This document shows positions 1,422 through 31,522 of a stretch of 64,000 nt of DNA, one piece after another (positions within the stretch are counted from its first letter, which is position 1; every line of letters starts with the position of its first letter). The position numbers were made by a program, and so were the translations under genes. Location: the IMG/VR virus record IMGVR_UViG_3300023179_000016, positions 32,001 to 96,000 of that record; one strand, written 5' to 3'. Below the pieces are notes generated by a model that was not told the origin of the DNA, made no database searches, and saw nothing but the letters and a program-made list of their open reading frames with translations. The stretch is from a virus.

Positions 1422-1802
1422 TTATTTAACCAACGATACTGCGAGATCTACTAGATAATCTGGCAAAATATTAAGATCTATACCCTTGGGAAGAGGTTGG
1501 GACGCTGAACGGGGTACGTGTTTAGATGTTAAAGCTTTTTTTCTCATGCCGCCATTTAGCGAACTTGCTCTTTTTAGATGATTCATCACCATACTCTTCA
1601 CATAGATGCGAACATTGCGTTTTATAGTAGTAGGTTTACTGTAAGTAACATGTCCAGCACATATGCTGTCTGTAATCGAATCGCATATCCTATCGATGTC
1701 AAAAGTAGACAACAGTGACAATGCCACGTCTTTTCCAAAGACAAAACTGTTGCCCAAAGTTTTGGCAACTTCATCTACGACCGCTTGCTTTTGACTCTTC
1801 AT
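1422..1802 (-). CDS. divergent member of the QKEAV...NWLRKDxRLNGG paralogue family
   Basis: QKQAV, YVKSMVMNHLKRASSLNGG and C-terminal IDLNILP align by eye with the 16941/25851/30021/31085 proteins. Confidence 0.7.
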   Translation of the reverse strand: MKSQKQAVVDEVAKTLGNSFVFGKDVALSLLSTFDIDRICDSITDSICAGHVTYSKPTTIKRNVRIYVKSMVMNHLKRASSLNGGMRKKALTSKHVPRSASQPLPKGIDLNILPDYLVDLAVSLVK

Positions 1803-2105
1803 TTATTCACCAAAGGAAAATTGTTTTTGATTTTTATCTGTAACGATCAATAGTGTCAGTATTTCAACTGGCAAAATGTTCCATTTATATTCCAATAATT
1901 GGATTTTACCAATTGTATTTAATTTTTTGAGCAATGATTGTATTTCTTTAGGTCTATCAGAAGAATTCTTAATGGTCTTAATGGCGACCACATCTATCAG
2001 TCCCTCTTCTTTCAAGAAGAAGAGAACGTCTTCAAGTTGACCAGTCAAGTCATTTAATCGTTTAAGAGCTTCTATTTCAGATCTAATACTCACGGTGAGT
2101 TCCAC
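1803..2105 (-). CDS. hypothetical protein
   Basis: ORF tightly packed between ligase and 1422 gene. Confidence 0.65.
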   Translation of the reverse strand: MELTVSIRSEIEALKRLNDLTGQLEDVLFFLKEEGLIDVVAIKTIKNSSDRPKEIQSLLKKLNTIGKIQLLEYKWNILPVEILTLLIVTDKNQKQFSFGE

Positions 2106-2108
2106 ATA

Positions 2109-3041
2109 TTATGTCGACATGTCGATAGGATCTCTGAAACCTTGAAAAGAGGGTATTCTAGGTAAATCTTTTACCCCAACCTCTTGGTATCTGTATCGAA
2201 CTATCTTTCCCAAATACTCTTCTTTATTGTCCCAAATCCTTTTTCTGAGAGAATCATCTAGGCCTTTACCCGTGCCTATTCCGAACTCTCTACCGTCGTG
2301 AACATCTTTCACGAACATGGTGCCTAATGTATTGACACCCACCATACCCGCTTTCGCAGTGGATCGCTTGGTATGACCCAATTCATCCAGCGATGCTTCA
2401 TTGGTGTTATGCAGTCTTTCTTCTAGTTTAACTATGATTGCTTCTGAATCTACGAATCTTTTTATCTTGACTAGATATTGTTCTTTGAACGATGACCGAC
2501 CGCATTTATAGGGTCCAGTTAATTTTCTGGTCATTATGCCCTCATGACCTTGTCTTATCGCCTGTTCCTCGTATTCCAATAATTCTGCCTCGTTGTTGAC
2601 GATTGTGGGTAACACCAGGACGCAGAACTCCGGTTTATCATTTGCCCAGGCAACCAAGTCTTTGACTCTATCTATGTAAGGCTTATCTATGGAGTCTTTT
2701 ACGAAATCAAAGATTTGATATATAAAGTTAGGTTCGCCATCTTCTGACATCACCTCGCTTTGGATGTCAGAAAACTCCTTCAAAGAACCGTCTCGATTTA
2801 TAGTCATCAATTCGCCGTCGAGACCGTCCGGCAATACAGACATTTTGGCTTGAATATACCTATTAGGTATGTCCTTGAATGATCTAGACAGCGACTTAGA
2901 ATTAAGTCTTAAACACCTGATGCCATCTAGTTTAATAGATGCCGCTAATGGGTATTTTAAATCAACAAATGACATCTGCTGACCACGACTATTTTCCATA
3001 GAGGCGGCCAACATGGGTTTCTTAATCATAATTCTCTCCAT
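2109..3041 (-). CDS. ATP-dependent DNA ligase (phage type)
   Basis: motif I KLDGIR, DGEL, FDF, EGIMTR, LVKIKR, C-terminal OB fold PRIPSF; alternative start 3029 has GGAGAG RBS. Confidence 0.93.
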   Translation of the reverse strand: MERIMIKKPMLAASMENSRGQQMSFVDLKYPLAASIKLDGIRCLRLNSKSLSRSFKDIPNRYIQAKMSVLPDGLDGELMTINRDGSLKEFSDIQSEVMSEDGEPNFIYQIFDFVKDSIDKPYIDRVKDLVAWANDKPEFCVLVLPTIVNNEAELLEYEEQAIRQGHEGIMTRKLTGPYKCGRSSFKEQYLVKIKRFVDSEAIIVKLEERLHNTNEASLDELGHTKRSTAKAGMVGVNTLGTMFVKDVHDGREFGIGTGKGLDDSLRKRIWDNKEEYLGKIVRYRYQEVGVKDLPRIPSFQGFRDPIDMST

Positions 3042-3063
3042 CCGAAAATGGATAAATTCGGAT

Positions 3064-3984
3064 TTAGTACTTTTTCAAGAAATCTTGCATATCTTCTTGA
3101 GATACGAGCATTGACCAGCCAAATGAATCGCCGGCAAATAGAACACCGATTACTTGACCCCATCCATTTACCACAGCAGACCCGCTACTTCCAGGTTGCG
3201 CGAGAATTGTTGTAAAATATGCGTTTTTAGTAACATTCATGCACACCTTAACTACATATTCTAGACCTAAAAAATCCCTTTTTTGAACTAGGACTTTGTT
3301 TTTAGGCTTATCGCATTCGCTCTCAAGCATTCCACCCAGTTCTTGGGGAATTAATTCTTCTGGCGCGCTACCCATCTTAATGGAGATGTATCCTTCTGGA
3401 ATCTCTATGTCTTTAGACATGATGAGAGTACCTTTTGTCATCGTCGTCAAATATCCGGCAGGATGCCCAACCGCTGCCAGCGAGTCTCCCTTGTCTGGAG
3501 GCGAAGTACTGACCGTTAGACCTTCTACTCCTGGCATGCCCTCTAGTAGGCAAAGATCAGTTTTTTCAGATCTATGTAATATGGATCTAGGTATAAACTC
3601 GCCATTGTCATCCATCACAGATAAGTGGGCTCCGTCTGTTGACGCATCGCATACATGATCGTTTGTTAGCAAATATGATTTGCCACTCGGCGCCTTCACC
3701 ATGAATCCTGTGCCGCTACCGATTCCAGGTTCAAACATTATATAACTCTTTGATCCTACTTTATTTCTTAGCCAAGCGTCCCTAAGTTCCGGGGCTTTTA
3801 CAGCAATAGCTGCAATGGCTGCCGCAATAGCTGCAGCTAAAGTTGTTGCAGCAATAGCGTCTTTATGCTTCAGTACTGCCTTTTTAGCATTGGCAATTGC
3901 AGGTTTTAATTTTTTGTTGAGTTTAGTTTTAACTTTAGATTTTTTCATTTTGACTCCAATATTTGGATATTCTACCTCACTCAA
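3064..3984 (-). CDS. trypsin-like (S1) serine protease with N-terminal hydrophobic anchor
   Basis: GTGF, LTNDHVC (His), TDLCLL (Asp), PGSSGS (Ser); Ala/Ile-rich hydrophobic segment. Confidence 0.88.
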   Translation of the reverse strand: MSEVEYPNIGVKMKKSKVKTKLNKKLKPAIANAKKAVLKHKDAIAATTLAAAIAAAIAAIAVKAPELRDAWLRNKVGSKSYIMFEPGIGSGTGFMVKAPSGKSYLLTNDHVCDASTDGAHLSVMDDNGEFIPRSILHRSEKTDLCLLEGMPGVEGLTVSTSPPDKGDSLAAVGHPAGYLTTMTKGTLIMSKDIEIPEGYISIKMGSAPEELIPQELGGMLESECDKPKNKVLVQKRDFLGLEYVVKVCMNVTKNAYFTTILAQPGSSGSAVVNGWGQVIGVLFAGDSFGWSMLVSQEDMQDFLKKY

Positions 3985-4781
3985 CGAGAGTCTAACATAG
4001 ACTTCACGAGTTTTCCTGTTTTTACAGCAGTGGCCTGCGATGTACCAGTGCTCGACTCAGAAATCTTCTCTATGCCGTAAGAAATTCTAGATACGCCGTG
4101 TTCCCAACTATTGACATAATTACCATAGTTAGAGCTATAATAGCGATTATTGTTAACATCTAGGTTACCTACTACAATTAGGCGCTCATCGTACATCGCT
4201 GGGTAAAAACTGCAACCTGTAATAGTTGTTTTGTTATTGACTTTTTTATGTGTCGCGGATCCAAGTTCGCAACCATAGTTGCCAGCAGCAACTACAACTT
4301 TTATGCCCGTATCAAGAGCGCGCTTGATATACTTTTTTTCTTCATCGTTTGAGGATCCACCGCCAGCAGATATGTTTATGATGTCCACTTTGATGTTGAT
4401 CGCCCACCTGAGCGCATTCACCATGCTTCTGACAGTAGAACTAGATGTTGCTGTGCGGGGATCATAGAATTTGAGTATGACCTGACAATAATTGATCTTT
4501 TTATCTTTGAGGGACAAGAGCTCATCGTCGCTGCGGGCGACAGAATTTTTTGCATACTGATCTATGAGGCCACTAATGTGAGAACCATGACCAGAAGTAT
4601 CTATCAGAGATGTTTTTGTGAAATCTCGATGACCATGCTTACACATGGAAATAGAATTCTTAGCTAGATTGCCAATGCCGCTATCTATTACTGCCACTAT
4701 GATAGGCTTATCGGCATTAGCAGAAGAGGCAGAGATGAAACCGCAGACGATAAAAAAAGATATTTTATTTAGAATCTTCAT
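3981..4781 (-). CDS. subtilisin-like (S8) serine protease with signal peptide
   Basis: VAVIDSG, HGSHISG, VAAGN, GTSQAT; ANA-D signal-peptide-like N-terminus. Confidence 0.9.
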   Translation of the reverse strand: MKILNKISFFIVCGFISASSANADKPIIVAVIDSGIGNLAKNSISMCKHGHRDFTKTSLIDTSGHGSHISGLIDQYAKNSVARSDDELLSLKDKKINYCQVILKFYDPRTATSSSTVRSMVNALRWAINIKVDIINISAGGGSSNDEEKKYIKRALDTGIKVVVAAGNYGCELGSATHKKVNNKTTITGCSFYPAMYDERLIVVGNLDVNNNRYYSSNYGNYVNSWEHGVSRISYGIEKISESSTGTSQATAVKTGKLVKSMLDSR

Positions 4782-5046
4782 TGTTGACAGATACCATTAA
4801 ACGTTCTAAACACTTGTAGATATCGGATCGGTATTTGTCGTCAGTAAAATGAGAGCAATCTTTAATATGTTTCTTTATGTCCTGTTGGGATAAGCCCATG
4901 TCGATTAGCTTTTGATATACGGATAGCGCTTCTATCAGAAGACTAAAATTAAATGGTTTATTTTCTGATTTGTCGACAGAAGATTTATTCTGCCGTTCAA
5001 ACCGTTTATTTTTTGCTCTTATTCTGTCGTCTTCGTAGAATCCCAT
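4765..5046 (-). CDS. hypothetical protein
   Basis: ORF overlapping neighbours in the minus-strand operon. Confidence 0.6.
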   Translation of the reverse strand: MGFYEDDRIRAKNKRFERQNKSSVDKSENKPFNFSLLIEALSVYQKLIDMGLSQQDIKKHIKDCSHFTDDKYRSDIYKCLERLMVSVNNEDSK

Positions 5047-5423
5047 ATCTTTTCACCAAATAGTTCTTGTGTCTCTTCAAGAGAGTATACCGGATAATCT
5101 ATATCTAAGTTTTTAGACTTAGGCTGTTTTGCAGGCCTATTGCTTTCCAACAACAGCAATGCGCATTCTTCCGGGGTGAAACTGGCGTAACTGGCTTCTT
5201 TGGAGGAGAAGATTTTTGAGCTCACCTTGAATTCGATCTCTGGATCGAACTTTTCCGGTACACTCTTTTGTAATTCCATCTGCTCTCTTTGTCGATCGCT
5301 GATCGACTGTGACTGAATCACGGACAGCATCACGCGCTCTACCTCTTTATATGTGCAACCTAAAATTTGGTTGCAGATAGATTGCTTTGCATCTTTACTA
5401 TGAAGTATCTCGTTGGCTCTCAT
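5019..5423 (-). CDS. hypothetical protein
   Basis: ORF in operon. Confidence 0.6.
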   Translation of the reverse strand: MRANEILHSKDAKQSICNQILGCTYKEVERVMLSVIQSQSISDRQREQMELQKSVPEKFDPEIEFKVSSKIFSSKEASYASFTPEECALLLLESNRPAKQPKSKNLDIDYPVYSLEETQELFGEKIWDSTKTTE

Positions 5424-5567
5424 AAGTCTATCTTCTTTATTTAATAGACTTAATCCACTAATGTCTTTGATCTTCTGTTTGAGTCGCTTTGACAGAAATT
5501 AACTCCTACACCTAGATTATATCACTCGACTATATAAAGTCGAACGACATCTACGTTAGATTATAAG

Positions 5568-5885
5568 TTATTGTTCTGTCAGAGATTTTTCTAGATCTTG
5601 ATCAAATGTCATGCTGTAGGCAACAGCGGCGCACTCCTCGACTATCTTAACAAAGTACTCGTCTTTAAAGGCCGGATGGTCTGAAGTGGAAATGGCTTTG
5701 CACACTTCATATTTAACCCGCTCTTGGTTTGGAAAAGATGGCTCATCGGTGAACGATTCAACTGCCTTAAGCAGTTCTTCCGGGACAGGTATATTAAAGT
5801 GGCGCCAGAAATCTAGCGCGCTCTGACAATCTCTTGCCGAGATGACCACTTTACCTTCATTTGCAGCAGTAGTTTCTTTGCTCAT
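5568..5885 (-). CDS. hypothetical protein
   Basis: ATGA overlap with clpP. Confidence 0.7.
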   Translation of the reverse strand: MSKETTAANEGKVVISARDCQSALDFWRHFNIPVPEELLKAVESFTDEPSFPNQERVKYEVCKAISTSDHPAFKDEYFVKIVEECAAVAYSMTFDQDLEKSLTEQ

Positions 5886-6553
5886 TTTTCCACCCGTTGT
5901 TTTTTAATATCGGATTTTTGTTTCTTAGTCTTCTTTATTTTAGGACTTAGAGTGGTTTTATTGTGCTTATCTATCATTGGTTTTTCGGGTGTCTGAACTA
6001 TTTCATACATAAGATTGGATACTATCTTAGGCGTCCCTATTGCGTCTATGATACCAAATTTTAAAGCTGAGGGGGCATCCATATATCTATCCCTGCCATC
6101 TTGCTTTTTTATAAGCTCTCTAATCTCTTCATAATCTTTGAATCCGCAGTTCTTAGCTAGGAGGCCTAAAAAGTGCTCGTTTAATCTTTTGGTCTCAGTG
6201 ATGTCTGCATGCATATCGTGGACATCGCCTGCGGTCCCAGAGCTTGTCTCGTGCACCATAACCCTACTGTGCTTACCGCAGAACCTAATGTCTCCGTGGC
6301 TCAATAAGATGGCTCCGCAAGACATAGCCTTACCCATGCAGGTTGTAACTACCGTATTTGGTATTTCATCTATCGTCTCTATCATTTTAGCCAGGGCATC
6401 AACGGAGCCGCCATAGGAATCGATGTATACCATTATTGGTCTTCTTGGGTCCATTCTAGATTGATTTAAGATGGCATCTCTAAACTTTTGAGCAGATTCC
6501 TCGTCAAACTTAGTCACCCAAATCTCATGAGATCTCACGAAGTCATCTTCCAT
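5882..6553 (-). CDS. clpP: ClpP-family peptidase
   Basis: YIDSYGGSV, GKAMSCG (Ser), MVHE (His), RDRYM (Asp), FGIID; triad intact. Confidence 0.92.
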   Translation of the reverse strand: MEDDFVRSHEIWVTKFDEESAQKFRDAILNQSRMDPRRPIMVYIDSYGGSVDALAKMIETIDEIPNTVVTTCMGKAMSCGAILLSHGDIRFCGKHSRVMVHETSSGTAGDVHDMHADITETKRLNEHFLGLLAKNCGFKDYEEIRELIKKQDGRDRYMDAPSALKFGIIDAIGTPKIVSNLMYEIVQTPEKPMIDKHNKTTLSPKIKKTKKQKSDIKKQRVEK

Positions 6554-16940: not shown

Positions 16941-17432
16941 TTAGCTAGCGATGAATTTAGCAGCGAGTTCTGGCGGGAGAACAGAGTAATCGATTGTAGT
17001 GTTCATCTTATTTGTCTGAGAAATCTCAGCAGTCCTGTTGTCGATGTGGCCCTGAACCTCAGCGATCTCGCTGGGATCGGTGAGAGTGGAAAGAAGGGCA
17101 CGAAGCGCTTTTAGCTGAGGGTCAGAAGAACCCTTACGAGAACCAGGATTCTTTGCTGCATAAGATACGCCGCCGTTCAAGCGAGTATCTTTGCGGAGCC
17201 AATTTGACTGAAGACCGGAGACATACGCCCGCAGCTCAGAAGCGTTAAAACTCTTATCAAGAGCGATGTTTCCAGCAGAAAAACCTTCTACCAGAATTTG
17301 GTTAACCTGCAACCGCAGTTCACGAGTCATCATCGAGCTGATATTGTCGCCCTCAGATACCGTGATATTGTTCTCAGCCAGAACGTTCATAACTGCTGAA
17401 TAGACTGCTTCTTTTTGAGTTTGCTTAGACAT
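16941..17432 (-). CDS. QKEAV...NWLRKDxRLNGG family protein
   Basis: long identical motifs shared with 25851, 30021 and 31085; AGGAG RBS. Confidence 0.85.
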   Translation of the reverse strand: MSKQTQKEAVYSAVMNVLAENNITVSEGDNISSMMTRELRLQVNQILVEGFSAGNIALDKSFNASELRAYVSGLQSNWLRKDTRLNGGVSYAAKNPGSRKGSSDPQLKALRALLSTLTDPSEIAEVQGHIDNRTAEISQTNKMNTTIDYSVLPPELAAKFIAS

Positions 17433-17990: not shown

Positions 17991-17997
17991 GTTTAAA

Positions 17998-18153: not shown

Positions 18154-18157
18154 AAAA

Positions 18158-18647: not shown

Positions 18648-18848
18648 TTACTTGATACCGAAGCGGATCTTGATGCTGGTCGGAAGAGCCGAGAAGTCTG
18701 CAGGTTTTTTATCTGCATTAGAAGTCGATCGTGACCTAGTTCCCCTAGGAACCCTCCTGGTGGGAAGCTTGGTGATTTTTCCACCAGCTTCCAGAAAACT
18801 TGCGATCTCAGAAGACATTTGAACGCGAACAACAGTTTTACTCCTCAT
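18648..18848 (-). CDS. SutA RNAP-binding-domain-like small protein
   Basis: EIASFLEAGGKITKLP matches the FLxxGGxI/V helix of SutA; GGAGG RBS. Confidence 0.65.
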   Translation of the reverse strand: MRSKTVVRVQMSSEIASFLEAGGKITKLPTRRVPRGTRSRSTSNADKKPADFSALPTSIKIRFGIK

Positions 18849-20550: not shown

Positions 20551-20556
20551 TAGCTT

Positions 20557-21078: not shown

Positions 21079-21084
21079 TAACGT

Positions 21085-22020
21085 ATGCGAGTTACTCCTG
21101 AGCAAATAAAGAAGTATCTTGATATGTATGTTATTGGCCAAGATCAAGCAAAAAAAGCCTTATCTGTCGCTGCATATAATCACAATAAGAGAGTTAATTC
21201 TAGCGGCAACTTGAAGAAATCAAACGTGTTGTTAATCGGCCCTACTGGGTCAGGTAAGACTTATATGGTAACACTATTGGCGCATATGTTGAATGTAAAG
21301 TTCATATCAGTTGATGCCACGCAGTTTACTAGTTCAGGCTATGCTGGAAGAGATGTCGAAGAAATAGCGTTCGAGATAATGTCAGCATGTGACGGTGACG
21401 AGAGCGAAGCTGTAAAATCTATAGTGCACATAGATGAAATAGATAAGATAAGAAAAAAGACCACACACAATGGTGTTTCAGATATAAACGGCGTGGAAGT
21501 TCAACAGGCGCTATTAAAGATGATAGAGGGTACAGATCTAAGTTATGCATCCACCGGATCCAAAACGGACCCACATGATAGAAAACTAAACACAAACAAT
21601 ATCATGTTTATATGTTCCGGTGCATTTGTTGGTCTGGAAAATTCCACGTCGCAGTCTTTGGTGAAATTTGGGATAATACCTGAATTTTTGGGCAGATTTT
21701 CTACTATTGCTACGTTGAATTCCTTGAGCGCATCAGATTTAAAGTCGATAATATTAGACTCTAAAGGATCAATTCTTGAATCTTACAAGGAGTGGTTCTC
21801 GAGTGAGGGCATAGAATTATCTGTTTCTGAGGATGGTTTGGATTGTATTGTAGAGAGAGCACTACTAAAAAACGTGGGGGCGAGAGGTCTACACGGCACT
21901 ATAGATGAAGCTCTACTTAATGCTCAGTTTGAAGCTCCAGGTCTAGTAATAAAACCTAAAGCCTTAATCATAAACAGAAATATGGTAGAGACTGGCATAG
22001 CAAACTGGGTATATGCTTAA
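21085..22020 (+). CDS. clpX: ClpX-like AAA+ unfoldase lacking the zinc-binding domain and IGF loop
   Basis: YVIGQDQAKK, KSNVLLIGPTGSGKT, DAT, DEIDKI, VQQALLKMIEG, PEFLGRF, GARGL. Confidence 0.9.
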   Translation: MRVTPEQIKKYLDMYVIGQDQAKKALSVAAYNHNKRVNSSGNLKKSNVLLIGPTGSGKTYMVTLLAHMLNVKFISVDATQFTSSGYAGRDVEEIAFEIMSACDGDESEAVKSIVHIDEIDKIRKKTTHNGVSDINGVEVQQALLKMIEGTDLSYASTGSKTDPHDRKLNTNNIMFICSGAFVGLENSTSQSLVKFGIIPEFLGRFSTIATLNSLSASDLKSIILDSKGSILESYKEWFSSEGIELSVSEDGLDCIVERALLKNVGARGLHGTIDEALLNAQFEAPGLVIKPKALIINRNMVETGIANWVYA

Positions 22021-22037
22021 AATTATAGGTCAATTTG

Positions 22038-22046
22038 TGGTATAAT
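22038..22046 (+). promoter_or_regulatory. extended -10 element, probably leaderless transcript
   Basis: TGGTATAAT with ATG (22053) 7 nt downstream. Confidence 0.65.
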
Positions 22047-22052
22047 TTCTAT

Positions 22053-22757
22053 ATGGATAAATTTATAGATTGGTCCGAATGGATCCTGCAAAAAAACGAC
22101 GAATTCGCAAGCGAAGAGCTTAACAAGGCAAAAATATACGACATCAAGTCAAAGAAGAAGGTGGCAGATTTACCTTCTGACATTACACCAAAGCGCTCAC
22201 CAAAGTTAAAAGTCATTGACAAGCAAAAAGAAGAAGAAAAAAATAAAAAGTCAAAAGATGCAGACGACAAAGCCACACACAATACAACTCATTACAAATC
22301 TAGATTAAAACAATTACAAGAAAAGATAAAGCAGGTCGTAAAGCCTGCAAATGTACCAAATATATCACCGTCAAAGAAAGACAGTGATATGCTGAAAACT
22401 GAACGAGCAGAAAAGCAAAAAAAACAGTCTGATTTGCCAAGCGGACACTTGGACAGAAGAGATCAAGCAGCTAAGCCGCCAAGCGAGATAGCTAAGAAGC
22501 CAATAATCTCTAGAGTAAAACTACCAGAAGAAAAAAAGCTAGAGACCGAGTCTGTTGAAGAATTCAAGAGAAAGAGGATGGAAGATCTTAGAGCGGCTAG
22601 AAGTGTTCGAGATATCGGGGAAAGAGCCAAACAGTTGTCCGATAAAGAAACCATTATAAGAGATAGAGAAAAAGAAAAAAATAAAGTTGTAAAGACTGAA
22701 CTGTTAAAGACCTTACCGAACGGCCAGTGGGAATTACTCGAAAAAAAAATATGTTAA
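22053..22757 (+). CDS. Lys-rich protein with DWSEW and NGQW motifs; probably continues by frameshift to 23058
   Basis: DWSEWILQKN..ELNKA at start, ELLKTLPNGQWELLE just before the A9 run. Confidence 0.75.
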   Translation: MDKFIDWSEWILQKNDEFASEELNKAKIYDIKSKKKVADLPSDITPKRSPKLKVIDKQKEEEKNKKSKDADDKATHNTTHYKSRLKQLQEKIKQVVKPANVPNISPSKKDSDMLKTERAEKQKKQSDLPSGHLDRRDQAAKPPSEIAKKPIISRVKLPEEKKLETESVEEFKRKRMEDLRAARSVRDIGERAKQLSDKETIIRDREKEKNKVVKTELLKTLPNGQWELLEKKIC

Positions 22758-23755: not shown

Positions 23756-24106
23756 TTAGGGAAGATAAGAGAAATGTATCTGCTCTTCTCTCACTTCGCG
23801 GCTGCACTCGCCGCATTTAGTTTCTCTGAGCAATACGGGATCTCGCTTGATTCCGGTGCCGCCGCAACTCTTGCAGACATTAGATTTTAAGCTGCTGATC
23901 TCCGCTCTCAGCGCTTCATTCTCGAGCTCCAATAGTCTCACATGCCACTCGCGGCACGCACATGCGTTGTGGTGGGAAGTGCACTTCGGAATTTGTCTCA
24001 GTTCTTGCGGTAGAGAATTGAGATCGCACTCGCAATCCAGCACTAGATTGCAACCTGGACACGCCTCATTATACATATAATCACTGTTGGACTTGTATGA
24101 CATCAT
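23756..24106 (-). CDS. Cys-rich protein with coiled coil and DnaJ-like CxxCxGxG
   Basis: CPGC, CTSHHNACAC, LENEALRAEI, CKSCGGTG. Confidence 0.65.
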   Translation of the reverse strand: MMSYKSNSDYMYNEACPGCNLVLDCECDLNSLPQELRQIPKCTSHHNACACREWHVRLLELENEALRAEISSLKSNVCKSCGGTGIKRDPVLLRETKCGECSREVREEQIHFSYLP

Positions 24107-24136
24107 TTTCTCCTGTTTGGTTGTTATATTCAGTTT

Positions 24137-24391
24137 TTAATCGGCGAGCTCGAACTTCATCGAGTTGATCCTCTTCACTGGAACCATATACCAGCTGGCG
24201 GACAAACCGGACAGGAAGAATGTTTTGCTGACAATACTCCAGTAGATGTAGGATTTAAAGTTCGGATTATCGTTAAACATGCCCATAAGATCATCACCGG
24301 ACTTCTCTTCGAGACCGATCATGCGAGCTGCTTCTCTGGGATCGACGGTGGTACCATCTTTGAAGATAACTTTCGTGAGTCTTGACTTCAT
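24137..24391 (-). CDS. hypothetical protein
   Basis: GAGGAG RBS; start probably MKSRLTK. Confidence 0.6.
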   Translation of the reverse strand: MKSRLTKVIFKDGTTVDPREAARMIGLEEKSGDDLMGMFNDNPNFKSYIYWSIVSKTFFLSGLSASWYMVPVKRINSMKFELAD

Positions 24392-24484
24392 TTTTCTCCT
24401 CGACTTAAGAGGTTCTCAATCACTATATTAACTCAAAATACACTACTATCCCACGTGTTTTTATCGTGTCGGTATAAATTACCC

Positions 24485-24640
24485 ATGGAATGGTTGAAAT
24501 GGTTCTTAGTGATACTGGCAGCAGATGTGTGCGCGAGCCTCTTAAAGGAAAGCAATTGGAAGAGATTATTCAAGAAGAAGCGCAAGCGCAGCAGGTCTCG
24601 CAAGGTCGCTCAGATTATACCCCTCAAAAAGGTGGATTAG
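24485..24640 (+). CDS. small single-TM basic protein
   Basis: MEWLKWFLVILAA; ATG 7 nt after TATAAA. Confidence 0.5.
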   Translation: MEWLKWFLVILAADVCASLLKESNWKRLFKKKRKRSRSRKVAQIIPLKKVD

Positions 24641-24849
24641 ATCTTCCTGTCCGCGCACTCGTCGCAGCCTTGAATCTCATTGGAGAACGAGTTGCACTCC
24701 TTGCACGACTCAGCCCAGTATAGGTCCACGATGTTCCCCAAGTCCTCGACCTGCACAGAGCACGCCACCGTCGCATTATTCATCTCGTTGTACGGGACGG
24801 CCTCATTCGACTCAAACTCCACGATGATTCTATACTTGGGCATGATCAC
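24637..24849 (-). CDS. small Cys-containing protein
   Basis: MPKYRIIV...CKEC...CDEC. Confidence 0.6.
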   Translation of the reverse strand: MIMPKYRIIVEFESNEAVPYNEMNNATVACSVQVEDLGNIVDLYWAESCKECNSFSNEIQGCDECADRKI

Positions 24850-25037
24850 TTCACCTTCTTGATGTTGAGAACTTCCTCGTTGAACTCAATATTTTTGTAG
24901 TCGTACTCCACTTCAGACATGGACTTGCGCTTTGAGACCCCGCCGTAGATCTCTGCCGCTCCCCTCTTGGATTTGGCCTTTATGTACCTCACGGAATAGA
25001 TGGTCTGCTTCACTCGGACAGCATACTTCGGCATCAC
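24846..25037 (-). CDS. hypothetical protein
   Basis: MPKYAVRV start similar to neighbour. Confidence 0.6.
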   Translation of the reverse strand: MMPKYAVRVKQTIYSVRYIKAKSKRGAAEIYGGVSKRKSMSEVEYDYKNIEFNEEVLNIKKVK

Positions 25038-25052
25038 TCGACTCTCGCCCCT

Positions 25053-25244
25053 TTATGAGTTGGTCTCTGCGCATGCCGCGATGTGCTGCGCTACGTCCTC
25101 ATCTACGCCCCTCTCTCGCTTCTCGGCCAAGGAGTCTGCGTCGCACCTGCCGCAGGTCTTGACATCGTAACCCTTGAGCCTCAGAAAGAGAGCTTCGCAC
25201 CTCTCGCACGTATGCTTCACGAACGTCATACCCAAGTACTCCAT
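25053..25244 (-). CDS. small zinc-ribbon protein
   Basis: GAGGAGGAG RBS, CERC...CGRC. Confidence 0.65.
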   Translation of the reverse strand: MEYLGMTFVKHTCERCEALFLRLKGYDVKTCGRCDADSLAEKRERGVDEDVAQHIAACAETNS

Positions 25245-25420
25245 ATCACTCCTCCTCGCAAGAGAGCTCAAACGTCTTCTTGTGCTTGACCCGGTCCTTC
25301 TTCAGGGGGTGGACCTTGCTGGGCAATGGTTCCACCCTGGGTCTAATCCTTGGGCGCTTAATCTTCAGGGTGATCTTCTTCATAGAAGACATAGTGCCAC
25401 CTCATCCTTTCGTTATAGGT

Positions 25421-25711
25421 TTACAGCTCGAACTCCCCAACCTTGGGATTCGAACTCGAATTATAGCGGATCCAGGAGCTGCAGGAGTTGCACCTGACAG
25501 TGACGGGGTCGTAGCGATGGACGTACACGTCGGGGGACCCGCAAGCGTAGCAGCTCCTAGAGCAGTAGATGATGTCGATCAGAGCCTCCATAGTGGTCTT
25601 CTCCTCGCTGTGCTTGCCGCAGGAGGTGCAGGTGAAGATGTACGGGTCGCCCACCGTGTACTCGTCGTCCATACCAATATAGACATTGCAGTGGCGGCAG
25701 TAGATCTTCAT
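25421..25711 (-). CDS. double zinc-ribbon protein
   Basis: GAGGAGG RBS before MKIYCRHC; four CxxC pairs. Confidence 0.7.
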   Translation of the reverse strand: MKIYCRHCNVYIGMDDEYTVGDPYIFTCTSCGKHSEEKTTMEALIDIIYCSRSCYACGSPDVYVHRYDPVTVRCNSCSSWIRYNSSSNPKVGEFEL

Positions 25712-25740
25712 AGGTCTAAATCCTCCTCGATTCCAGCGGA

Positions 25741-25751
25741 TATAATCTCGG
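25741..25751 (-). promoter_or_regulatory. CCGA-N3-TATA motif
   Basis: CCGAGATTATA. Confidence 0.7.
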
Positions 25752-25850
25752 GGAAAAGTCGACCGCGCAGAAAAGAGAAGTCCACGCACGTCCCTCATAG
25801 ACACACGTGGACCTCTCTATATCAGCCGGGCTCGCGACCCAACAACCAAC

Positions 25851-26333
25851 TCACTCGCCAGACGTTGCCGTCGGAGCAAACTTGGCAGCGAGCTCCGGGG
25901 GCAGAGCACTGAGGTCGATCGTCGGCTGCTTGGACCGAGCGATCTCGGCGACCCGGGCATCGATGTGGGCCTGGACCTCAGCCCGGTCAGTGACGTCGGT
26001 GAGCGTTCCGAGCAGGGCTCGAAGAGCCTTGAGCTGCGGATCACCAGAACCAGAGCGAGAGCCAGGGTTCTTAGCCACATATGCGACCCCACCGTTCAGC
26101 CGCTTGTCCTTTCGGAGCCAGTTGCTCTGCAGGCCAGAGACATAGGCCTTCAGCTGCTGGTCGGTGAACTCCGTATCGAGCTCGATAGCTCCACCGCGGA
26201 ACCCCTCGAACAGGATCTGGTTCACCATGGCCCGCTCCTCACGGGACATCTCGACTGCACTCGAGAACTCGGTAGTTCCCTTGACGTTGACGACTGCACC
26301 ATAGACTGCTTCTTTCTGACTCATCTTGCTCAT
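25851..26333 (-). CDS. QKEAV...NWLRKDxRLNGG family protein
   Basis: paralogue; GGAGG RBS. Confidence 0.88.
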   Translation of the reverse strand: MSKMSQKEAVYGAVVNVKGTTEFSSAVEMSREERAMVNQILFEGFRGGAIELDTEFTDQQLKAYVSGLQSNWLRKDKRLNGGVAYVAKNPGSRSGSGDPQLKALRALLGTLTDVTDRAEVQAHIDARVAEIARSKQPTIDLSALPPELAAKFAPTATSGE

Positions 26334-26358
26334 AACTAACGTTCCTCCGTTGTTGTTC

Positions 26359-26369
26359 TATAAGATCGG
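26359..26369 (-). promoter_or_regulatory. CCGA-N3-TATA motif
   Basis: CCGATCTTATA. Confidence 0.7.
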
Positions 26370-26534
26370 GATATCGGTCACCACGACCGGTATCTTCACC
26401 TATGGGGTGTTCGGTACTCACTCAAAACTGGCTACTTCCGCGTCTGCTGTGGCTACCTACTGCTTGCCGCCTGCCTCCACTGGGGAGAGCTCCACTCGCG
26501 CTACTCCCTGCTCTCTACATCATTACCACCTAGA

Positions 26535-26545
26535 TATATGTTCGG
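26535..26545 (-). promoter_or_regulatory. CCGA-N3-TATA motif
   Basis: CCGAACATATA; no convincing ORF follows. Confidence 0.6.
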
Positions 26546-26737
26546 GATAATGGGATGTCGTGTAAGTCGCTGATACTATTGGTGGGGAAGGTTGGTGTGG
26601 AAGGGGTGTAACGGTGCCCACCTGAGTCACACTGAGTCTGACCCGACCTGCACGTCGCACTCACCGAGACTCCCCGATACCCGTCCAGACAGCCGATCGG
26701 GCTCGTGAGGTCATAGGCTCGGCTGCACCCGACAGCC

Positions 26738-26751
26738 GGCGTAGCAGTGTC
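26738..26751 (-). repeat. GACACTGCTACGCC box
   Basis: exact copy. Confidence 0.8.
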
Positions 26752-27322
26752 GGCGCGCGCTGAAAAGCAGTGGGTAGGGCAAGCAGCCGCTATTATATAG
26801 CCCGGCCAGGGCCATGTGCTGCCAGATCCCTACCCACGGACGCTTGTTGATCCCTTACTGCCTGAGTCTAGCCGTCGTCAGACAGGTCACCAACCTGTTA
26901 CGACCTCTAGATCGTTTCGGCCTTGGAAAGACTCACGTATCCGGGTACGGTTTTGAGAGCCACCCATCATACATATTCAGCAGGAGACAGAACCGTACAA
27001 GATTCTCCTACCGGTTAGACAATACATCCCGGTACTTCCGTCTAACAAGAGTACCGGATTTACCCCTCACTTTACCCGGACTAGGGACCGGTCACCGATA
27101 AGTGTCCTGGCTAGGACCACCGGTGAGTGGAAAACTGACTTACTTTCTGAGGCAGATGATCGGGAGCAGCGCGCGTGTTTCTGCGCCGAGAAGAAAAGCT
27201 ACGAGCGCATGACAGAAAAGCGTCTAATCCTACCAAGGCGGGCGCCGGGAATTGACCCGCCCACCCAGCGACCGCCCGATAAACCGCTGTTTTTTGAGCC
27301 TAGCTAACCTCCGGGGCGTGGC

Positions 27323-27592
27323 TCATTTCCCCTCCAGCGCGGCGCGGGCAATACTTGGCAATGCACAATCACAGGACTTCCCAAATTGAATGTCGCACCG
27401 TTCATGGTGAATGGTCAGATATTGCTTCAGCGCCTCCCGAAGCCTGGCGTTTTCAGCGCTGACTTCCTCGATTGCGACACGATACCCAGCCAAAAACACT
27501 TCTATGTCAATGTGCATTACAGATGCGTCTTTCTGATAGGCTGGGAATCGCTGCTTTAGATATTCTTCTGCCAGTTTTTCGGCTCTAGTCAT
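27323..27592 (-). CDS. ENARLREAL...ARAALEGK array protein
   Basis: start MTRAEK via ATGA overlap; HHERC...CDC insert. Confidence 0.75.
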   Translation of the reverse strand: MTRAEKLAEEYLKQRFPAYQKDASVMHIDIEVFLAGYRVAIEEVSAENARLREALKQYLTIHHERCDIQFGKSCDCALPSIARAALEGK

Positions 27593-27792
27593 TTCCCCTC
27601 CAGCGCGGCGCGGGCGATCGATGCGCCACAAAGACAACCAGCGGTATAGTCACAACCTTCATCATGGGCGGCAAATCTTTCCAGCGCCTCCCGAAGCCGG
27701 GCGTTCTCGGCTTCCATTTCGGCTCGTCCGGATTCGTAACCCTGTTGCCATCCTGAGCACGTTCCCTTGCATGGGTGATTCAGCTTGTTCAT
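27589..27792 (-). CDS. ENARLREAL array protein
   Basis: HPCKGTCSGWQQGY head; HDEGC...CLC insert. Confidence 0.78.
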   Translation of the reverse strand: MNKLNHPCKGTCSGWQQGYESGRAEMEAENARLREALERFAAHDEGCDYTAGCLCGASIARAALEGK

Positions 27793-28019
27793 TACTTCCC
27801 CTCCAGCGCGGCGCGGGCTTCAATTACTTCCTGTCTAAGTTCATCCCAAGCCTGACCTAGCTCTTCGTCCAGCAGAAGAGCCTCATCCACTTTATTGGTG
27901 ATCTTGCGAAGCGCCTCCCGAAGCCGGGTGTTTTCGGCTAAGAATCGATTCCTGGCCTCTTCAAATCCCCGCAACCACACCAATTCATCCGGACTTCCCG
28001 CCTCAGGTCTTGTGCTCAT
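27792..28019 (-). CDS. ENARLREAL array protein
   Basis: ENTRLREAL...ARAALEGK with a Cys-free insert. Confidence 0.78.
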   Translation of the reverse strand: MSTRPEAGSPDELVWLRGFEEARNRFLAENTRLREALRKITNKVDEALLLDEELGQAWDELRQEVIEARAALEGK

Positions 28020-28233
28020 TTAGTTTCTCCATAACATTGGCAGGGAGCATCTTTTCGTCTTCTAAAAAGACGTAATCGTACCCATCCGCGTGTTTCATCA
28101 GGTCTTCTTTTAACGAGCGAATGTCGGAGCTTATCCACTGTCCTAGAACCTGACCGTCTTCAGTGACACACACACCAACCACGTCCCAACCCGGGCTGGA
28201 CCCAAAGATCGGAAATCCATAAGCCTTCTTCAT
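28003..28233 (-). CDS. hypothetical protein inside the array (no repeat tail)
   Basis: start MKKAYG with GGAGGG RBS supplied by the upstream repeat. Confidence 0.65.
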   Translation of the reverse strand: MKKAYGFPIFGSSPGWDVVGVCVTEDGQVLGQWISSDIRSLKEDLMKHADGYDYVFLEDEKMLPANVMEKLNEHKT

Positions 28234-28565
28234 GCTTCCCTCCCCTCCAGCGCGGCACGGGCTGCACACTGCAGGCACCCCTGGTCGGAATAGCTGCACC
28301 GCTCATCGTGCCCACGGACCATTTCTTTCAGCGCCTCTCGCAGTCGTGCATTCTCAGACCGAAGCATAATTACCTCGTTAAGCCACTGCGGTGGCTCAAT
28401 AATGAGGTAAGACATACCCGCCCTTGTCCCCGGTGGATCGGACAAATGAATTTGTAAAGGCTCTGATGAGGCCAGTACGCAAGCATGGTCCTGAAGCGTG
28501 TTCAGTGAAACTTCTGCACCGCAGCGGGAGCATTTCCCAATTTTGTCGTTTGTAAAAAGGCTCAT
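28230..28565 (-). CDS. ENARLREAL array protein
   Basis: start MSLFTN; CSRC..HAC head; HDERC...CLQC insert. Confidence 0.75.
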   Translation of the reverse strand: MSLFTNDKIGKCSRCGAEVSLNTLQDHACVLASSEPLQIHLSDPPGTRAGMSYLIIEPPQWLNEVIMLRSENARLREALKEMVRGHDERCSYSDQGCLQCAARAALEGREA

Positions 28566-28804
28566 TTCCCCTCCAGCGCGGCGCGGGCGATATTTCCGAG
28601 CGTGCAATCGCAGAATCGAGCAGCGTCCAGCGGTGGGTTATCCCGCGAGGCGCAATCGTGGAAATGCGTGTAAGCGTACTCCTCCAGCGCCTCCCGAAGC
28701 CGGGCATTTTCAGCTTCAAGCTCTTTCATTTTTGTAGTGACTTCTTGGTTATACCGATCGGCAGAATCCAGCATGTCCTTTGTGAGATCCAATTCATCCT
28801 TCAC
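28562..28804 (-). CDS. ENARLREAL array protein (first gene)
   Basis: AGGAG RBS, GTG start; HFHDC...CDC insert. Confidence 0.78.
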   Translation of the reverse strand: MKDELDLTKDMLDSADRYNQEVTTKMKELEAENARLREALEEYAYTHFHDCASRDNPPLDAARFCDCTLGNIARAALEGK

Positions 28805-28993
28805 ACAAACGCTCCTTTCCGAAACTGGGGACTGGCCGCCTTATCCTTTTCCGGAGAGAGTTATGTGTGACACTACTACTCTTCGATGAAGTTTCACGAT
28901 CTTACGCGGCACCGCAGGCACTTCAAGCCTTCTGGGCCATTATATCACACTGTGCGAGATCTGTGGAGCTCTACGTAGGTGAGACTCATGGTA

Positions 28994-29206
28994 TCAACCC
29001 TTGTCTTTGCCGAGGCTGATGGGCAGCAGAGCCATCATCTCGGCGATGACCTGCTCGTCGGTCATCGGAGTGAGCTCGGGATTGGGCGTGAGCTCGGCTG
29101 GCACGTTCGGCCAGGGATACGAGGTCATCTTGAAGGGCTTGCCGGCCGCGACGCCGTACACGGTCTGTGTCTCTGTCTCAGAGTTGTAGCACGAGAGGTA
29201 TCTCAT
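28994..29206 (-). CDS. hypothetical protein
   Basis: AGGAG RBS; CCGATCCTAAA motif variant at 29225-29235. Confidence 0.65.
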   Translation of the reverse strand: MRYLSCYNSETETQTVYGVAAGKPFKMTSYPWPNVPAELTPNPELTPMTDEQVIAEMMALLPISLGKDKG

Positions 29207-29242
29207 ATCTTTCTCCTGTTGAGATTTAGGATCGGGATGGGT

Positions 29243-29404
29243 TCAGAGGTCCTCGACCAGATACTCGCCCTCGATCTCCAGCTCGACTGCGTAGCCCTGC
29301 TCGAGGTACTTATCTCCCACCTCGAGTGCCTGGTCGTAGGAGTCAAACCTGATGCTGGCGAACCTGGAGCACTGACCGATCTCGCGGACGTGGATGGTGT
29401 ACAT
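29243..29404 (-). CDS. 53-aa protein (not in ORF track), paralogue of 18248..18400
   Basis: MYTIHVREIG...DSYDQALEVG; GGAGG RBS. Confidence 0.65.
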   Translation of the reverse strand: MYTIHVREIGQCSRFASIRFDSYDQALEVGDKYLEQGYAVELEIEGEYLVEDL

Positions 29405-29426
29405 TCATATCCTCCATACATGGAAT

Positions 29427-29516
29427 TATATGATCGGGATCGGGTGGGATTCGGTTATATAGTCGGCGTGGCGGTGTCGGTCGGCGAGCAGCCGGGCGGA
29501 GCTTCCTTGCTCCGCC
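29427..29516 (-). promoter_or_regulatory. regulatory cassette: hairpin + box variant + two CCGA-N3-TATA
   Basis: GGCGGAGC-N6-GCTCCGCC 29495-29516; GACACCGCCACGCC 29465-29478; motifs 29456-29466 and 29427-29437. Confidence 0.8.
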
Positions 29517-29528
29517 TGCTCACTCAGG

Positions 29529-29879
29529 TTACTTGGAGTAGGCGACCACACCGTACAGTAGTCCGTTACCGGAACCATCGACTGGTTCGTCGACCATCTT
29601 GTATCCGAAAAGCTCCATGTTGTAGTTGAGTGCGTCGAGCATGTGGTCGATCCACTCGTTGAGTTCATGAGCATCGTCGGGTTTCAAGCCGTCGTCTGCG
29701 TAGTCATAGTGGACGACTATATCGCCCAACTTTATTGAAGGAAGAACTCCGTAGTTAGAGATGTTGGTCGGATCGATCGCTTCGACATACATGCTGCCAG
29801 GCATGTCACACTTGGCCTGGTGCGGAGCAGTTGACTCGAGATTGCTCACCAGTTTCACTACGGTGTTCATGTTAGCCAT
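29529..29879 (-). CDS. hypothetical protein
   Basis: single ORF between two cassettes, GAGG RBS. Confidence 0.7.
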   Translation of the reverse strand: MANMNTVVKLVSNLESTAPHQAKCDMPGSMYVEAIDPTNISNYGVLPSIKLGDIVVHYDYADDGLKPDDAHELNEWIDHMLDALNYNMELFGYKMVDEPVDGSGNGLLYGVVAYSK

Positions 29880-30006
29880 CAGGCAGACCTCTGGGTTATG
29901 AGTTAATTATTTAACCCATCGACAATTATATATAATGTCGGTAATGAGTTTACGGGTGGCGTAGCAGTGTCAGCGAGCAGCTGGGCGGAGCTTCCTTGCT
30001 CCGCCC
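29876..30006 (-). promoter_or_regulatory. regulatory cassette with duplicated leader
   Basis: hairpin 29983-30006, box 29958-29971, CCGACATTATA 29931-29941, leader hairpin 29898-29919. Confidence 0.82.
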
Positions 30007-30020
30007 AACCGCAGGTCAGC

Positions 30021-30488
30021 TCAGGCCTTGAACTTCGCGGCCAGCTCTGCAGGCAGCTGGCTGAAGTCGATGGCGGGCTTCGCGGGCTTGGCGATCTCGG
30101 CACTCCTGAGGTCGATGAAGTGCTGGATCTCAGCCCTGTCGGCCGGGTCAGTCACCGTGCTGAGCAGGGCCTTGAGAGCCTTGATCTGCGGGTCGCCAGA
30201 GCCAGAGCGAGCACCAGGGTTCTTGGTGACCCAGGTAGTCCCGCCGTTGAGTCGCTGGTCCTTGCGGAGCCAGTTGTTCACGAGGCCGACCACGTACTTC
30301 TTGAGCTCCGGCTCAGAGAAGTTGGCCTTGAGGGTGATCTTACCCTCCTTGAACATGGTGACCAGCTCCGAGTGGATCTGGGCCAGCTCAGACTTGCTGG
30401 GCGTGTGAGCTCCGTTAGGAGCGAACTGAGTGCAGAAGCAGCTGACGACATTGAAGACCGCTTCCTTCTGGTTCATTGCTGCGATCAT
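30021..30488 (-). CDS. QKEAV...NWLRKDxRLNGG family protein
   Basis: GGAGG RBS before MIAAMNQKEAV. Confidence 0.85.
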   Translation of the reverse strand: MIAAMNQKEAVFNVVSCFCTQFAPNGAHTPSKSELAQIHSELVTMFKEGKITLKANFSEPELKKYVVGLVNNWLRKDQRLNGGTTWVTKNPGARSGSGDPQIKALKALLSTVTDPADRAEIQHFIDLRSAEIAKPAKPAIDFSQLPAELAAKFKA

Positions 30489-30570
30489 GCGGGTTTCCTC
30501 CGTTGGTTGGTTGTAGGTTCGGGCGCGAGCTGTAAACTCGAGCATCATGCGCTCGACATTTACAATTAGA

Positions 30571-30656
30571 TATAAGATCGGGGGAAGTCGGTATGCGGCC
30601 GGCGTAGCAGTGTCACGGCGCGCGGACCAAAGGGTGGGGTCGTCCATGACCCCACC
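30571..30656 (-). promoter_or_regulatory. regulatory cassette
   Basis: hairpin GGTGGGGTC/GACCCCACC 30633-30656, box 30601-30614, CCGATCTTATA 30571-30581. Confidence 0.8.
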
Positions 30657-30667
30657 GTATCAGCGAC

Positions 30668-30925
30668 TCAACCGGTCAGCAGGTCGTTCCAGTCGACTGG
30701 TACGTAGCACTCGCCGGTCTCGCGGGCGAACTCGGATGGAGTGGGTTCGCGGCCGACTCGCACGTGCTGGTCGAGCTCCTCGATGTAGACGACCGACGGT
30801 TCGGAGTCAGTGACCTCATAGAAGTACTGATCAGCGTCCGCATCCAGCATCTCCCGCTGGATTCCCTCGTGGGTGACGAGGACGGTATAGTCGGTGCACG
30901 GCACAATAGAGATGAGTTTCACCAT
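30668..30925 (-). CDS. hypothetical acidic protein
   Basis: single ORF between cassettes, GGAGG RBS. Confidence 0.7.
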   Translation of the reverse strand: MVKLISIVPCTDYTVLVTHEGIQREMLDADADQYFYEVTDSEPSVVYIEELDQHVRVGREPTPSEFARETGECYVPVDWNDLLTG

Positions 30926-31071
30926 CAGGCAGACCTCCAGGTTATGAGTTAATTATTTAACTCATCATTCACTTTTATATATAATGTCGGTAATAGGACA
31001 CCAGGCGTAGCAGTGTCGGTGGCTCGAGCTACCGAGCCCGCTGCGGGGCGGAGCTTCCGTGCTCCGCCCCG
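30922..31071 (-). promoter_or_regulatory. regulatory cassette with duplicated leader
   Basis: hairpin 31044-31071, box 31004-31017, CCGACATTATA 30980-30990, palindrome 30944-30965; leader near-identical to 29876-29945. Confidence 0.82.
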
Positions 31072-31084
31072 ACCCGCTCTTCGC

Positions 31085-31522
31085 TCAGCGCTTGCCGAAC
31101 TTGGCTGCGATCTCTGCAGGCAGCTTGCTGAAGTCGACCTTGGGTCGGTTCAGCTCGGCGATCCGAGAGTCGATGTGTCGCTGGATCTCAGCTCGATCCG
31201 TCGGGTCGGTGATGGTGCTGAGCAGAGCCCTGAGCGCAGTCAGCTGGGGATCATCGACTCGGGAGGACTTGGGTTGGTGATCGACCCCACCGTTCAGCCG
31301 CTTGTCCTTTCGGAGCCAGTTGTTGAGCAACCCTGAGACATAGTTGCTCAGCTCCTTGTCGGTGTACTCCTTCCTGAGCTCGATGCTCCCGTTCCTGAAC
31401 CCCTCGAACAAGACCTGACGGATGGTTCGGGTCTGCTCAGAAGTCGGCTCGCAGACGCCGACTCCATCGAACCCGGTGATCGCGACCACTGCCTGGTAGA
31501 CTGCTTCCTTCTGGTTCATCAT
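31085..31522 (-). CDS. QKEAV...NWLRKDxRLNGG family protein
   Basis: GAGGAG RBS before MMNQKEAV. Confidence 0.85.
   Translation of the reverse strand: MMNQKEAVYQAVVAITGFDGVGVCEPTSEQTRTIRQVLFEGFRNGSIELRKEYTDKELSNYVSGLLNNWLRKDKRLNGGVDHQPKSSRVDDPQLTALRALLSTITDPTDRAEIQRHIDSRIAELNRPKVDFSKLPAEIAAKFGKR

Follow-up and report, generated by a model that had tools for sequence, protein, structure and literature searches.

In the large myovirus T4, the small transcription proteins gp33 and gp55 share one C-terminal peptide that binds a common hub, the gp45 sliding clamp (PMC7892883, PMC2988020). SspB-type ClpXP adaptors combine a binding domain, a flexible linker, and a movable terminal docking peptide, the XB peptide, which recruits ClpX (PMC12373786). 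SutA of Pseudomonas aeruginosa, which has been reported mainly from Pseudomonadales and Alteromonadales, binds the beta protrusion of the polymerase through residues M71, F74, L75, G78, G79, V81, and I84, as resolved by cryo-electron microscopy (PMC9300723). Here, we compare with these systems a family of small proteins encoded five times in a window of 64,000 nucleotides (the whole stretch analyzed, bases 32001-96000 of the 153,399-bp IMG/VR virus record IMGVR_UViG_3300023179_000016, which has an estimated completeness of 91%). The source is an uncultured, contractile-tailed phage, labeled G000; ten related genomes of 146-177 kb are labeled G001-G010. The C-terminal tail of the family recurs on SutA-like proteins of the same genomes and varies in step with theirs, and we tentatively read the family as adaptors or regulators that would dock on a hub common to RNA-polymerase binders.

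All five open reading frames (ORFs) of the five-copy family described by a first-pass annotation are in place on the minus strand and align as one family: copy 1 (1422..1802, 126 residues, isoelectric point [pI] 9.8), copy 2 (16941..17432, 163 residues), copy 3 (25851..26333, 160 residues), copy 4 (30021..30488, 155 residues), and copy 5 (31085..31522, 145 residues from start 31522). An N-terminal QKEAV helix, a third helix ending in Y..GL..N[WH]L[RK][RK]...LNGG, and a C-terminal [IV]D..[AL][LI]P..L tail are found in all five; in copy 3, for example, the core is NWLRKDKRLNGG at 26088-26123 and the tail IDLSALPPELAAKF at 25875-25919. Copies 2 to 5, the core copies, are 48-62% identical in pairs and also carry a KNPGSRxG loop, shortened in copy 5, and a DPQL hairpin. 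Copy 1 had been described as lacking the hairpin; it lacks the loop as well and retains the head, the LNGG core (NHLKRASSLNGG, 1548-1583), and the tail (IDLNILPDYL, 1437-1481). Its ATG immediately follows the stop codon of the upstream ORF at 1803-2105. Copy 1 is too diverged from the core copies to be found by BLASTP; a core-only profile does find it, at 16 bits, a score no more convincing than that of an apparently accidental match in the ORF that follows the tail sheath gene. That ORF (41674-42192), considered as a sixth member, reached 15 bits over the hairpin region only and was taken as chance; no sixth true member was found in the 153-kb genome. The place of copy 1 in the family is nevertheless firm by sequence comparison, because six relatives each have one gene that it matches (1e-24 to 8e-17), because two of these six orthologues keep the hairpin, and because a profile made from the six alone recovers all core copies of five genomes (1e-10 to 1e-18). 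The orthologues in the four close relatives lack both loop and hairpin, while more distant members of this branch keep the hairpin.

The tail, which takes the form [IV]D.SALP..L..KF in this phage, is not confined to the family. When the C-terminal pattern was looked for across the entire genome, it turned up on a SutA-like protein of 103 residues encoded about 2 kb before the window (G000 genome 29985-30293, minus strand; L118), which has an acidic end and orthologues in all ten relatives. We then ran a 17-position profile of the family tail on five complete genomes, taking all frames with 50 residues or more, and obtained 27 matches at 7 bits or more, compared with 1 in reversed and 0.8 in shuffled sequence; the 11 that fell in ORFs outside the family all lay within 48 residues of the C-terminus. 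One such carrier is a 66-residue SutA-like protein in the window (18648..18848, minus strand), not a family member, in which the tail (ADFSALPTSIKIRFG, 18657-18701) follows a SutA-RBD-like motif. This protein has a basic linker and scores 26.5 bits against PF20661, for which the cut-off is 29.3; the gene has a CCGAATATATA motif of its own (18865-18875) together with a GGAGGA ribosome site. Further carriers are the 69-residue counterpart of this protein in a relative, three proteins without any database match, and a plus-strand protein of approximately 380 residues (L125:470-1609, equivalent to G001 38869-40008) that ends in two tail copies split by a Pro/Ala-rich linker. The last is also found in G002 and adjoins an acidic, scaffold-like gene in both relatives; its orthologue in G000 (genome 146406-147653) is without the tail motif. 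SutA-RBD was the best Pfam match, and mostly the only one, in 13 of the 15 carriers or orthologues scanned (E 4e-6 to 0.2), and the carrier motif [VI]xx[FY][LM]xxGGx[IV]xx[VL]P retains the spacing of the SutA interface residues.

The tails of the family and of the SutA-like proteins co-vary, lineage by lineage, within the same genome. Both sets of proteins end in SALP..L..K[FY] in G000-G004, in IP.EL+..LG[IL] in G007, in IP..L.[HY][IL]L in G008 and G009, and in SALP..L...V in G010. In G006, a 72-residue chimera on the minus strand (L173:1381-1614, equivalent to G006 131980-132213) joins a SutA-like motif directly to the family hairpin, which was recognized at 21 bits (E 5e-5). Judging from these sequences, the tail, and in one relative the hairpin, is a portable module, and the co-varying tails and the chimera indicate that the family and the SutA-like proteins have traded such modules and maintained them in concert. 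The simplest reading is that both groups would serve one partner. On this basis, the tail would dock both onto one co-evolving hub, helix 3 and the adjacent basic loop of the head would bind a conserved ligand, with nucleic acid as the likeliest, and the variable head surfaces of the four to five paralogues would provide different specificities. Taken together, tail docking, head binding, and paralogue specificity would let the family act as adaptors or regulators while the phage takes over gene expression in its host. We favor this reading, although at somewhat less than an even chance. The leading candidates for the hub are a complex of RNA polymerase with a phage sigma factor, or the ClpP-type protease encoded beside the SutA-like gene. 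Pointing toward the former, the co-carriers resemble polymerase binders, and the CCGA promoter-like class described below is common to copies 3-5 and the gene of the 66-residue protein. The earlier suggestion of host takeover receives indirect encouragement from the sharing of tail and hairpin with proteins that resemble RNA-polymerase binders.

An AlphaFold model of copy 3, built with 121 homologues, had a full-length predicted local distance difference test (pLDDT) value of 85. Helices are predicted at residues 6-18, 31-46, and 58-75, followed by a poorly ordered loop (76-98), a hairpin (99-110 and 114-134), and a short helix (146-152); the head alone (residues 1-82) is modeled as three helices with a pLDDT of 97 and a predicted template modeling score of 0.86. 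As modeled, the proteins consist of three modules: a three-helix head predicted with confidence, a helical hairpin, and a C-terminal peptide. The invariant core comprises helix 3 and a Lys/Arg/Gly-rich loop (Y..GL..NWLRKD.RLNGG..Y..KNPGSR.G..D). The first-pass annotation had called the central basic motif nearly invariant, and it is indeed the best conserved part, with a column entropy of 1.27 compared with 2-3 elsewhere among 129 diverse members. Conservation is highest at the end of helix 3 and in loop 76-98, which carries a net charge of approximately +3.5, and lowest in the loop between helices 1 and 2; these two helices are also variable. A head surface that varies while core and tail stay constant fits the proposal that the family may be diversified in specificity. 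A conserved, flexible, basic loop beside the best-kept helix would resemble a ligand-induced binding site, for which nucleic acid is the obvious candidate. Two other interpretations of these motifs were set aside: LNGG as an LxGG protease site, as the second Gly can vary and the position is that of a helix cap, and KNPGSRxG as an AT-hook, as there is no RGR core.

Foldseek searches of the PDB gave no significant match for the whole model or for the head alone (E-values above 0.4). The list of best matches to the head in a wider search (Z 4-5.2) is mostly made up of winged-helix or RNA-binding three-helix domains, including the PKMT2 C-terminal domain, E2F-DP, the ribosomal L11 C-terminal domain, E2F8, the winged helices of DpnI and MCM, and forkhead domains. 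The best of these reached Z 5.2, with a root mean square deviation (rmsd) of 2.4 A over 63 residues; E2F-DP (1cf7), the PKMT2 C-terminal domain (5doo), and the L11 C-terminal domain (1aci) span Z 4.8-5.2 and rmsd 2.4-3.5 A over 62-63 residues. In these domains, as in the family head, the third helix is the most conserved. However, sequence identity to these domains is 6-16%, no wing beta-hairpin is predicted (the beta content of the head model amounts to two single-residue beta bridges), and the scores are within the noise for helical domains. The Pfam PKMT winged-helix domain matched 4 of 132 homologues weakly. We treat the winged-helix likeness of the modeled head as a weak lead only; with Z at about 5 and a conserved basic loop, it leans slightly toward the nucleic-acid binder that had been proposed. 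A search of predicted viral structures in BFVD returned only a family member, A0A6J5KXM4 of an uncultured Caudovirales phage, which is a true relative over its full length (Foldseek E 3.8e-9, 37% identity). It is uncharacterized and without annotation, and adds no functional information.

The first-pass annotation had offered dosage amplification as one explanation for the number of copies, and this is not supported. A maximum-likelihood tree, built from 45 copies in 11 genomes, splits deeply into two clades. Each genome contributes a single gene to clade A, which includes copy 1; the loop and hairpin of this clade were lost in the lineage of G000 and its four closest relatives. The core copies make up clade B, which contains old orthologue groups: copy 2, for example, clusters with a single gene per genome in four close relatives, and copy 5 is sister to copy 4. 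Five more distant genomes have separate private triplets within clade B, which arose through repeated duplication or gene conversion. Each copy in the window is 72-84% identical to genes elsewhere, compared with 48-62% to its window neighbors, and copy number in related phages, which the first-pass annotation had proposed to check, was four to five, all on one strand, in every one of the ten relatives (four of them with terminal repeats). The age of the copies, from identities and tree alike, rules out recent amplification; by this evidence, the family consists of several diverged paralogues that have been retained over the long term.

The family is large and restricted to viruses, and neither Pfam nor PHROGs contains it. 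In a word-indexed collection, 1,906 homologous proteins were identified by profile search, and there are 858 clusters at 50% identity among 1.84 billion representatives. Nearly all homologues have 145-175 residues, and none is named or has a Pfam domain. The few forms of 200-300 residues add only disordered Gly-rich or acidic tails, and no fused form of more than 309 residues was found among the homologues. Neighbors in the ESM Atlas are unnamed clusters that are 92-100% viral, and 69 IMG/VR loci carry the family. Among isolates, a tblastn search of 50,697 phage genomes gave no family match; Myxococcus phage Mx1, the nearest isolate by tail sheath and the only one with a detectable relative of that protein (32% identity), is without the family. 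The statement that the proteins belong to no recognized family has stood up to Pfam, PHROG, PDB-sequence, and fold searches. Pfam and PHROGs gave no informative match to the five proteins, nor did PDB sequence profiles to the family. Pfam searches of 132 diverse homologues gave only scattered weak matches, the commonest being TetR_C_2 (11 of 132, best E 0.017), and a literature search for the family motif found nothing.

The regulatory signals of the genes agree with what had been reported for them. The promoter-like CCGA-N3-TATA motif occurs 16 times, always on the minus strand, compared with 1.9 occurrences expected. An identical version of it, CCGATCTTATA, precedes each of the three copies in the GC-rich region (minus strand, 26359..26369 for copy 3, 30571..30581 for copy 4, and 31661..31671 for copy 5). 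Because the second of these falls inside the long ORF at 30021-30647, we rejected that ORF as the gene of copy 4, and the most likely start is 30488 (MIAAMNQ...). The four core copies have strong ribosome sites, as described, of GGAGG type 6-9 nt before the start: AGGAG 7 nt upstream in copy 2, which also has a 10-bp hairpin in its leader, GGAGGA 6 nt upstream in copy 4, and GAGGAG 6 nt upstream in copy 5. On the 3' side, copy 3 is followed by a terminator-like GC hairpin and T-run (25771..25813), as read from the sequence, copy 4 by the GC hairpin GGGCGGAGC-AAGGAA-GCTCCGCCC (29983..30006), and copy 5 by GGGGCGGAGC-ACGGAA-GCTCCGCCCC (31045..31070), all on the minus strand. Upstream of the plus-strand structural genes, GTTATAATT-type, TATAAT-like -10-like boxes recur at 34640-63037, for example before 34808, 36032, 39390, 44084, and 63035. 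These boxes form a promoter-like class distinct from that of the minus strand. The family genes use the phage-specific CCGA-N3-TATA class and not the boxes of structural genes, and the early timing that had been proposed is uncertain.

Several points weigh against reading the family as adaptors on a hub shared with RNA-polymerase binders. The family has no significant homology to anything of known role, and a part in transcription takeover would rest on guilt by association. All SutA-RBD matches of the tail carriers are below the Pfam gathering score (at best 26.5 compared with 29.3 bits), and PF20661 had no match at E up to 1 in the five copies or in 132 homologues. In a wide VIA-align search, the best score for either model was Z 5.2, which is in the stated noise range of the tool (Z under 8), and while the proteins are mildly basic overall, two of the five copies have a pI of approximately 6.6 and a net charge near zero. 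The sharing and co-variation of tails could reflect recombination of modules and not a common partner. Finally, a ClpP-like gene stands beside the SutA-like gene in 10 of the 11 genomes, which points equally well to proteolysis. By analogy with known adaptors, the tail could be a protease-docking peptide or a degron, with its carriers acting as Clp adaptors or as early proteins marked for timed removal, and we consider this possible but doubtful. The ClpP-family gene has 275-300 residues and lies approximately 0.2-1.1 kb from the SutA-like tail gene, mostly in divergent orientation; the gene neighborhood in G000 has a 278-residue example on the plus strand (genome 30995-31453), divergent to the gene of the 103-residue protein. 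Every genome has one to three ClpP-like genes. The succession of head, basic or Pro-rich linker, and terminal peptide parallels SspB and its ClpX-recruiting peptide. In distant relatives, the tails end in ...LRHLVK or ...LRALVK, which we take to resemble the end of the SspB XB peptide. However, tails of the lineage of G000 end in ...LAAKF, and the larger SutA-like protein continues for 18-32 acidic residues after the motif and is hence not strictly a terminal degron. The sole direct link to a protease is gene neighborhood. No conserved phage unfoldase is known, as the ClpX-like ATPase at 21085-22020 is missing from all ten relatives; this ATPase was accordingly dropped as a candidate for a conserved hub. 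A broader variant, which we regard as rather improbable, would have one short, co-evolving C-terminal peptide recruit different heads, namely the SutA-like binders and the four to five winged-helix-like paralogues, to either the polymerase/sigma complex or a protease of ClpP type. The paralogues would be targeting adaptors that deliver host polymerase, or host proteins bound to nucleic acid, for destruction or reprogramming. A sliding-clamp hub, after the model of gp33 and gp55, is the weaker analogy: the 91% complete G000 genome gave no Pfam match for a beta-clamp, PolA, or PolB, gp45-type clamp models not being among those searched, and a clamp-binding tail acting via a phage polymerase was dropped as no clamp or family A or B polymerase gene was found.

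The remaining explanations concern other uses of the heads or of the tail. The paralogues may be counter-defense effectors whose head surfaces vary through an arms race with host immunity, their constant parts serving folding or a common inhibitory mechanism. The repeated lineage-specific duplications in five relatives, the variable head loops and helices 1-2 beside an invariant core, and the placement of the genes, which have small accessory genes around them and in one relative an Acb5-like gene, are all in line with such a role. Nonetheless, we judge it unlikely: there was no match to a known anti-defense protein in Pfam, PHROG, or PDB (PADLOC not being among the resources searched), the sharing of tail and hairpin with SutA-like proteins is left unexplained, and a basic flexible loop as the best-kept element suits a conserved ligand over a fast-changing target. 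If the tail were instead a capsid-targeting peptide, by analogy with T4 internal proteins and encapsulin cargo, its carriers would be packed, injected with the DNA, and act at once on host DNA and polymerase. One short terminal peptide on several unrelated proteins is what is seen with cargo-loading peptides, and the two-tail protein of approximately 380 residues adjoins a scaffold-like gene in two relatives. This reading is quite improbable to us given that the G000 orthologue of the two-tail protein has no motif, that no protease-site pattern was found, and that the family has CCGA-N3-TATA and not the GTTATAATT-type boxes before structural genes; with its promoter class differing from theirs, co-expression with heads is not indicated. 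T4-type internal proteins, moreover, have an N-terminal capsid-targeting sequence cut by the prohead protease, while in the family the conserved N-terminus forms part of helix 1 within a well-packed domain (pLDDT 94-98) and is therefore unlikely to be a removable leader. Least probable of all, in our estimate, are general nucleoid or DNA-coating, histone-like proteins, with co-assembling paralogues and a tail that is structural only. The basic conserved core loop and winged-helix-like head would suit DNA coating, as would the Gly-rich or acidic disordered extensions of some homologues, and the strong ribosome sites and the arrangement of copies 3-5 as single-gene units, each with its own promoter motif and hairpin, suggest high expression. 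Against this stand the two copies with almost no net charge, the lack of an AT-hook or HU/H-NS-like feature in the family, and, again, the recurrence of the tail on unrelated proteins, which DNA coating does not explain.

The setting of the family genes has features of its own. A minus-strand block from position 1 to approximately 34,700 of the window encodes ribonucleotide reductase, ThyX, DNA ligase, RNase H, dCMP deaminase, three proteases, and many small genes, and the plus strand encodes the tail sheath (39390-41630), baseplate proteins, and a protein of 2,376 residues. The proteases are clustered at 3064-6553 (trypsin-like, 3064-3984; subtilase, 3981-4781; ClpP, 5882-6553), which is unusual within a replication and nucleotide-metabolism block of a phage. 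Between copy 2 and the gene of the 66-residue SutA-like protein, there are three transfer RNA genes (17915-18235; Leu-TAA, Ile-TAT, Arg-TCT), of which the Arg gene is the sole stretch with DNA similarity to isolate phages. The minus-strand block is interrupted by a plus-strand insert (19892-22757) in which the ClpX-like AAA+ ATPase, which lacks the zinc-binding N-domain, is flanked by two unknown genes and an HNH endonuclease gene (19892-20431) adjoins. The GC content is 51-56% at 24000-33000 compared with approximately 39% elsewhere, and in this island lie copies 3, 4, and 5, with a GC content at third codon positions (GC3) of 0.71, 0.84, and 0.79, compared with 0.35 for copy 1 and 0.47 for copy 2. 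No such island surrounds the family copies of the closest relative (LNEN01000305.1, 146,658 bp; L114/L115), and this and the high GC3 of copies 3-5 suggest that the island may have been imported from a GC-richer relative. A second multi-copy family at 27323-28804 consists of five small minus-strand genes with repeats conserved at the DNA level, the ends being of ENARLREAL and ARAALEG types. As to the host, the closest relative was deposited among the contigs of a Cytophagales genome bin, and other contigs with the family were binned in Saccharibacteria and in the archaeal Promethearchaeota. These bins conflict, so the clues from binning are weak and give no reliable host.

Multi-copy orphan families are common in the accessory regions of phages, and most of them offer no way in; the shared tail provides one here. 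As it co-varies with proteins that resemble binders of the beta protrusion and the hairpin occurs in a chimera with one, the question of function becomes a search for the partner of a peptide. If that partner were the polymerase/sigma complex, the family would represent a new class of phage transcription factors, while if it were a Clp protease, its members would be phage-encoded targeting adaptors. In either case, a virus-confined family with approximately 860 clusters at 50% identity that is missing from Pfam and PHROG merits a database entry.

Reading the family as adaptors on a shared hub places it closest to the three systems with which we began, and it differs from each. With gp33 of T4 there is no similarity, and there are four to five copies rather than one; the likeness is that of small proteins in a large phage sharing one C-terminal peptide. 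No sequence or fold similarity to SspB was detected, SspB is not among the fold matches, and the phage ClpX-like gene is not conserved among relatives. The resemblance, known here from architecture and neighborhood, is in the same plan of binding domain, flexible linker, and movable terminal peptide, with ClpP-family genes conserved beside one class of tail carriers. SutA itself has no such tail, and the focal family has no SutA-RBD; what it has in common with the SutA-like phage proteins is limited to two modules, the tail and the hairpin. It is in those small tail-sharing proteins that the interface spacing of SutA recurs.

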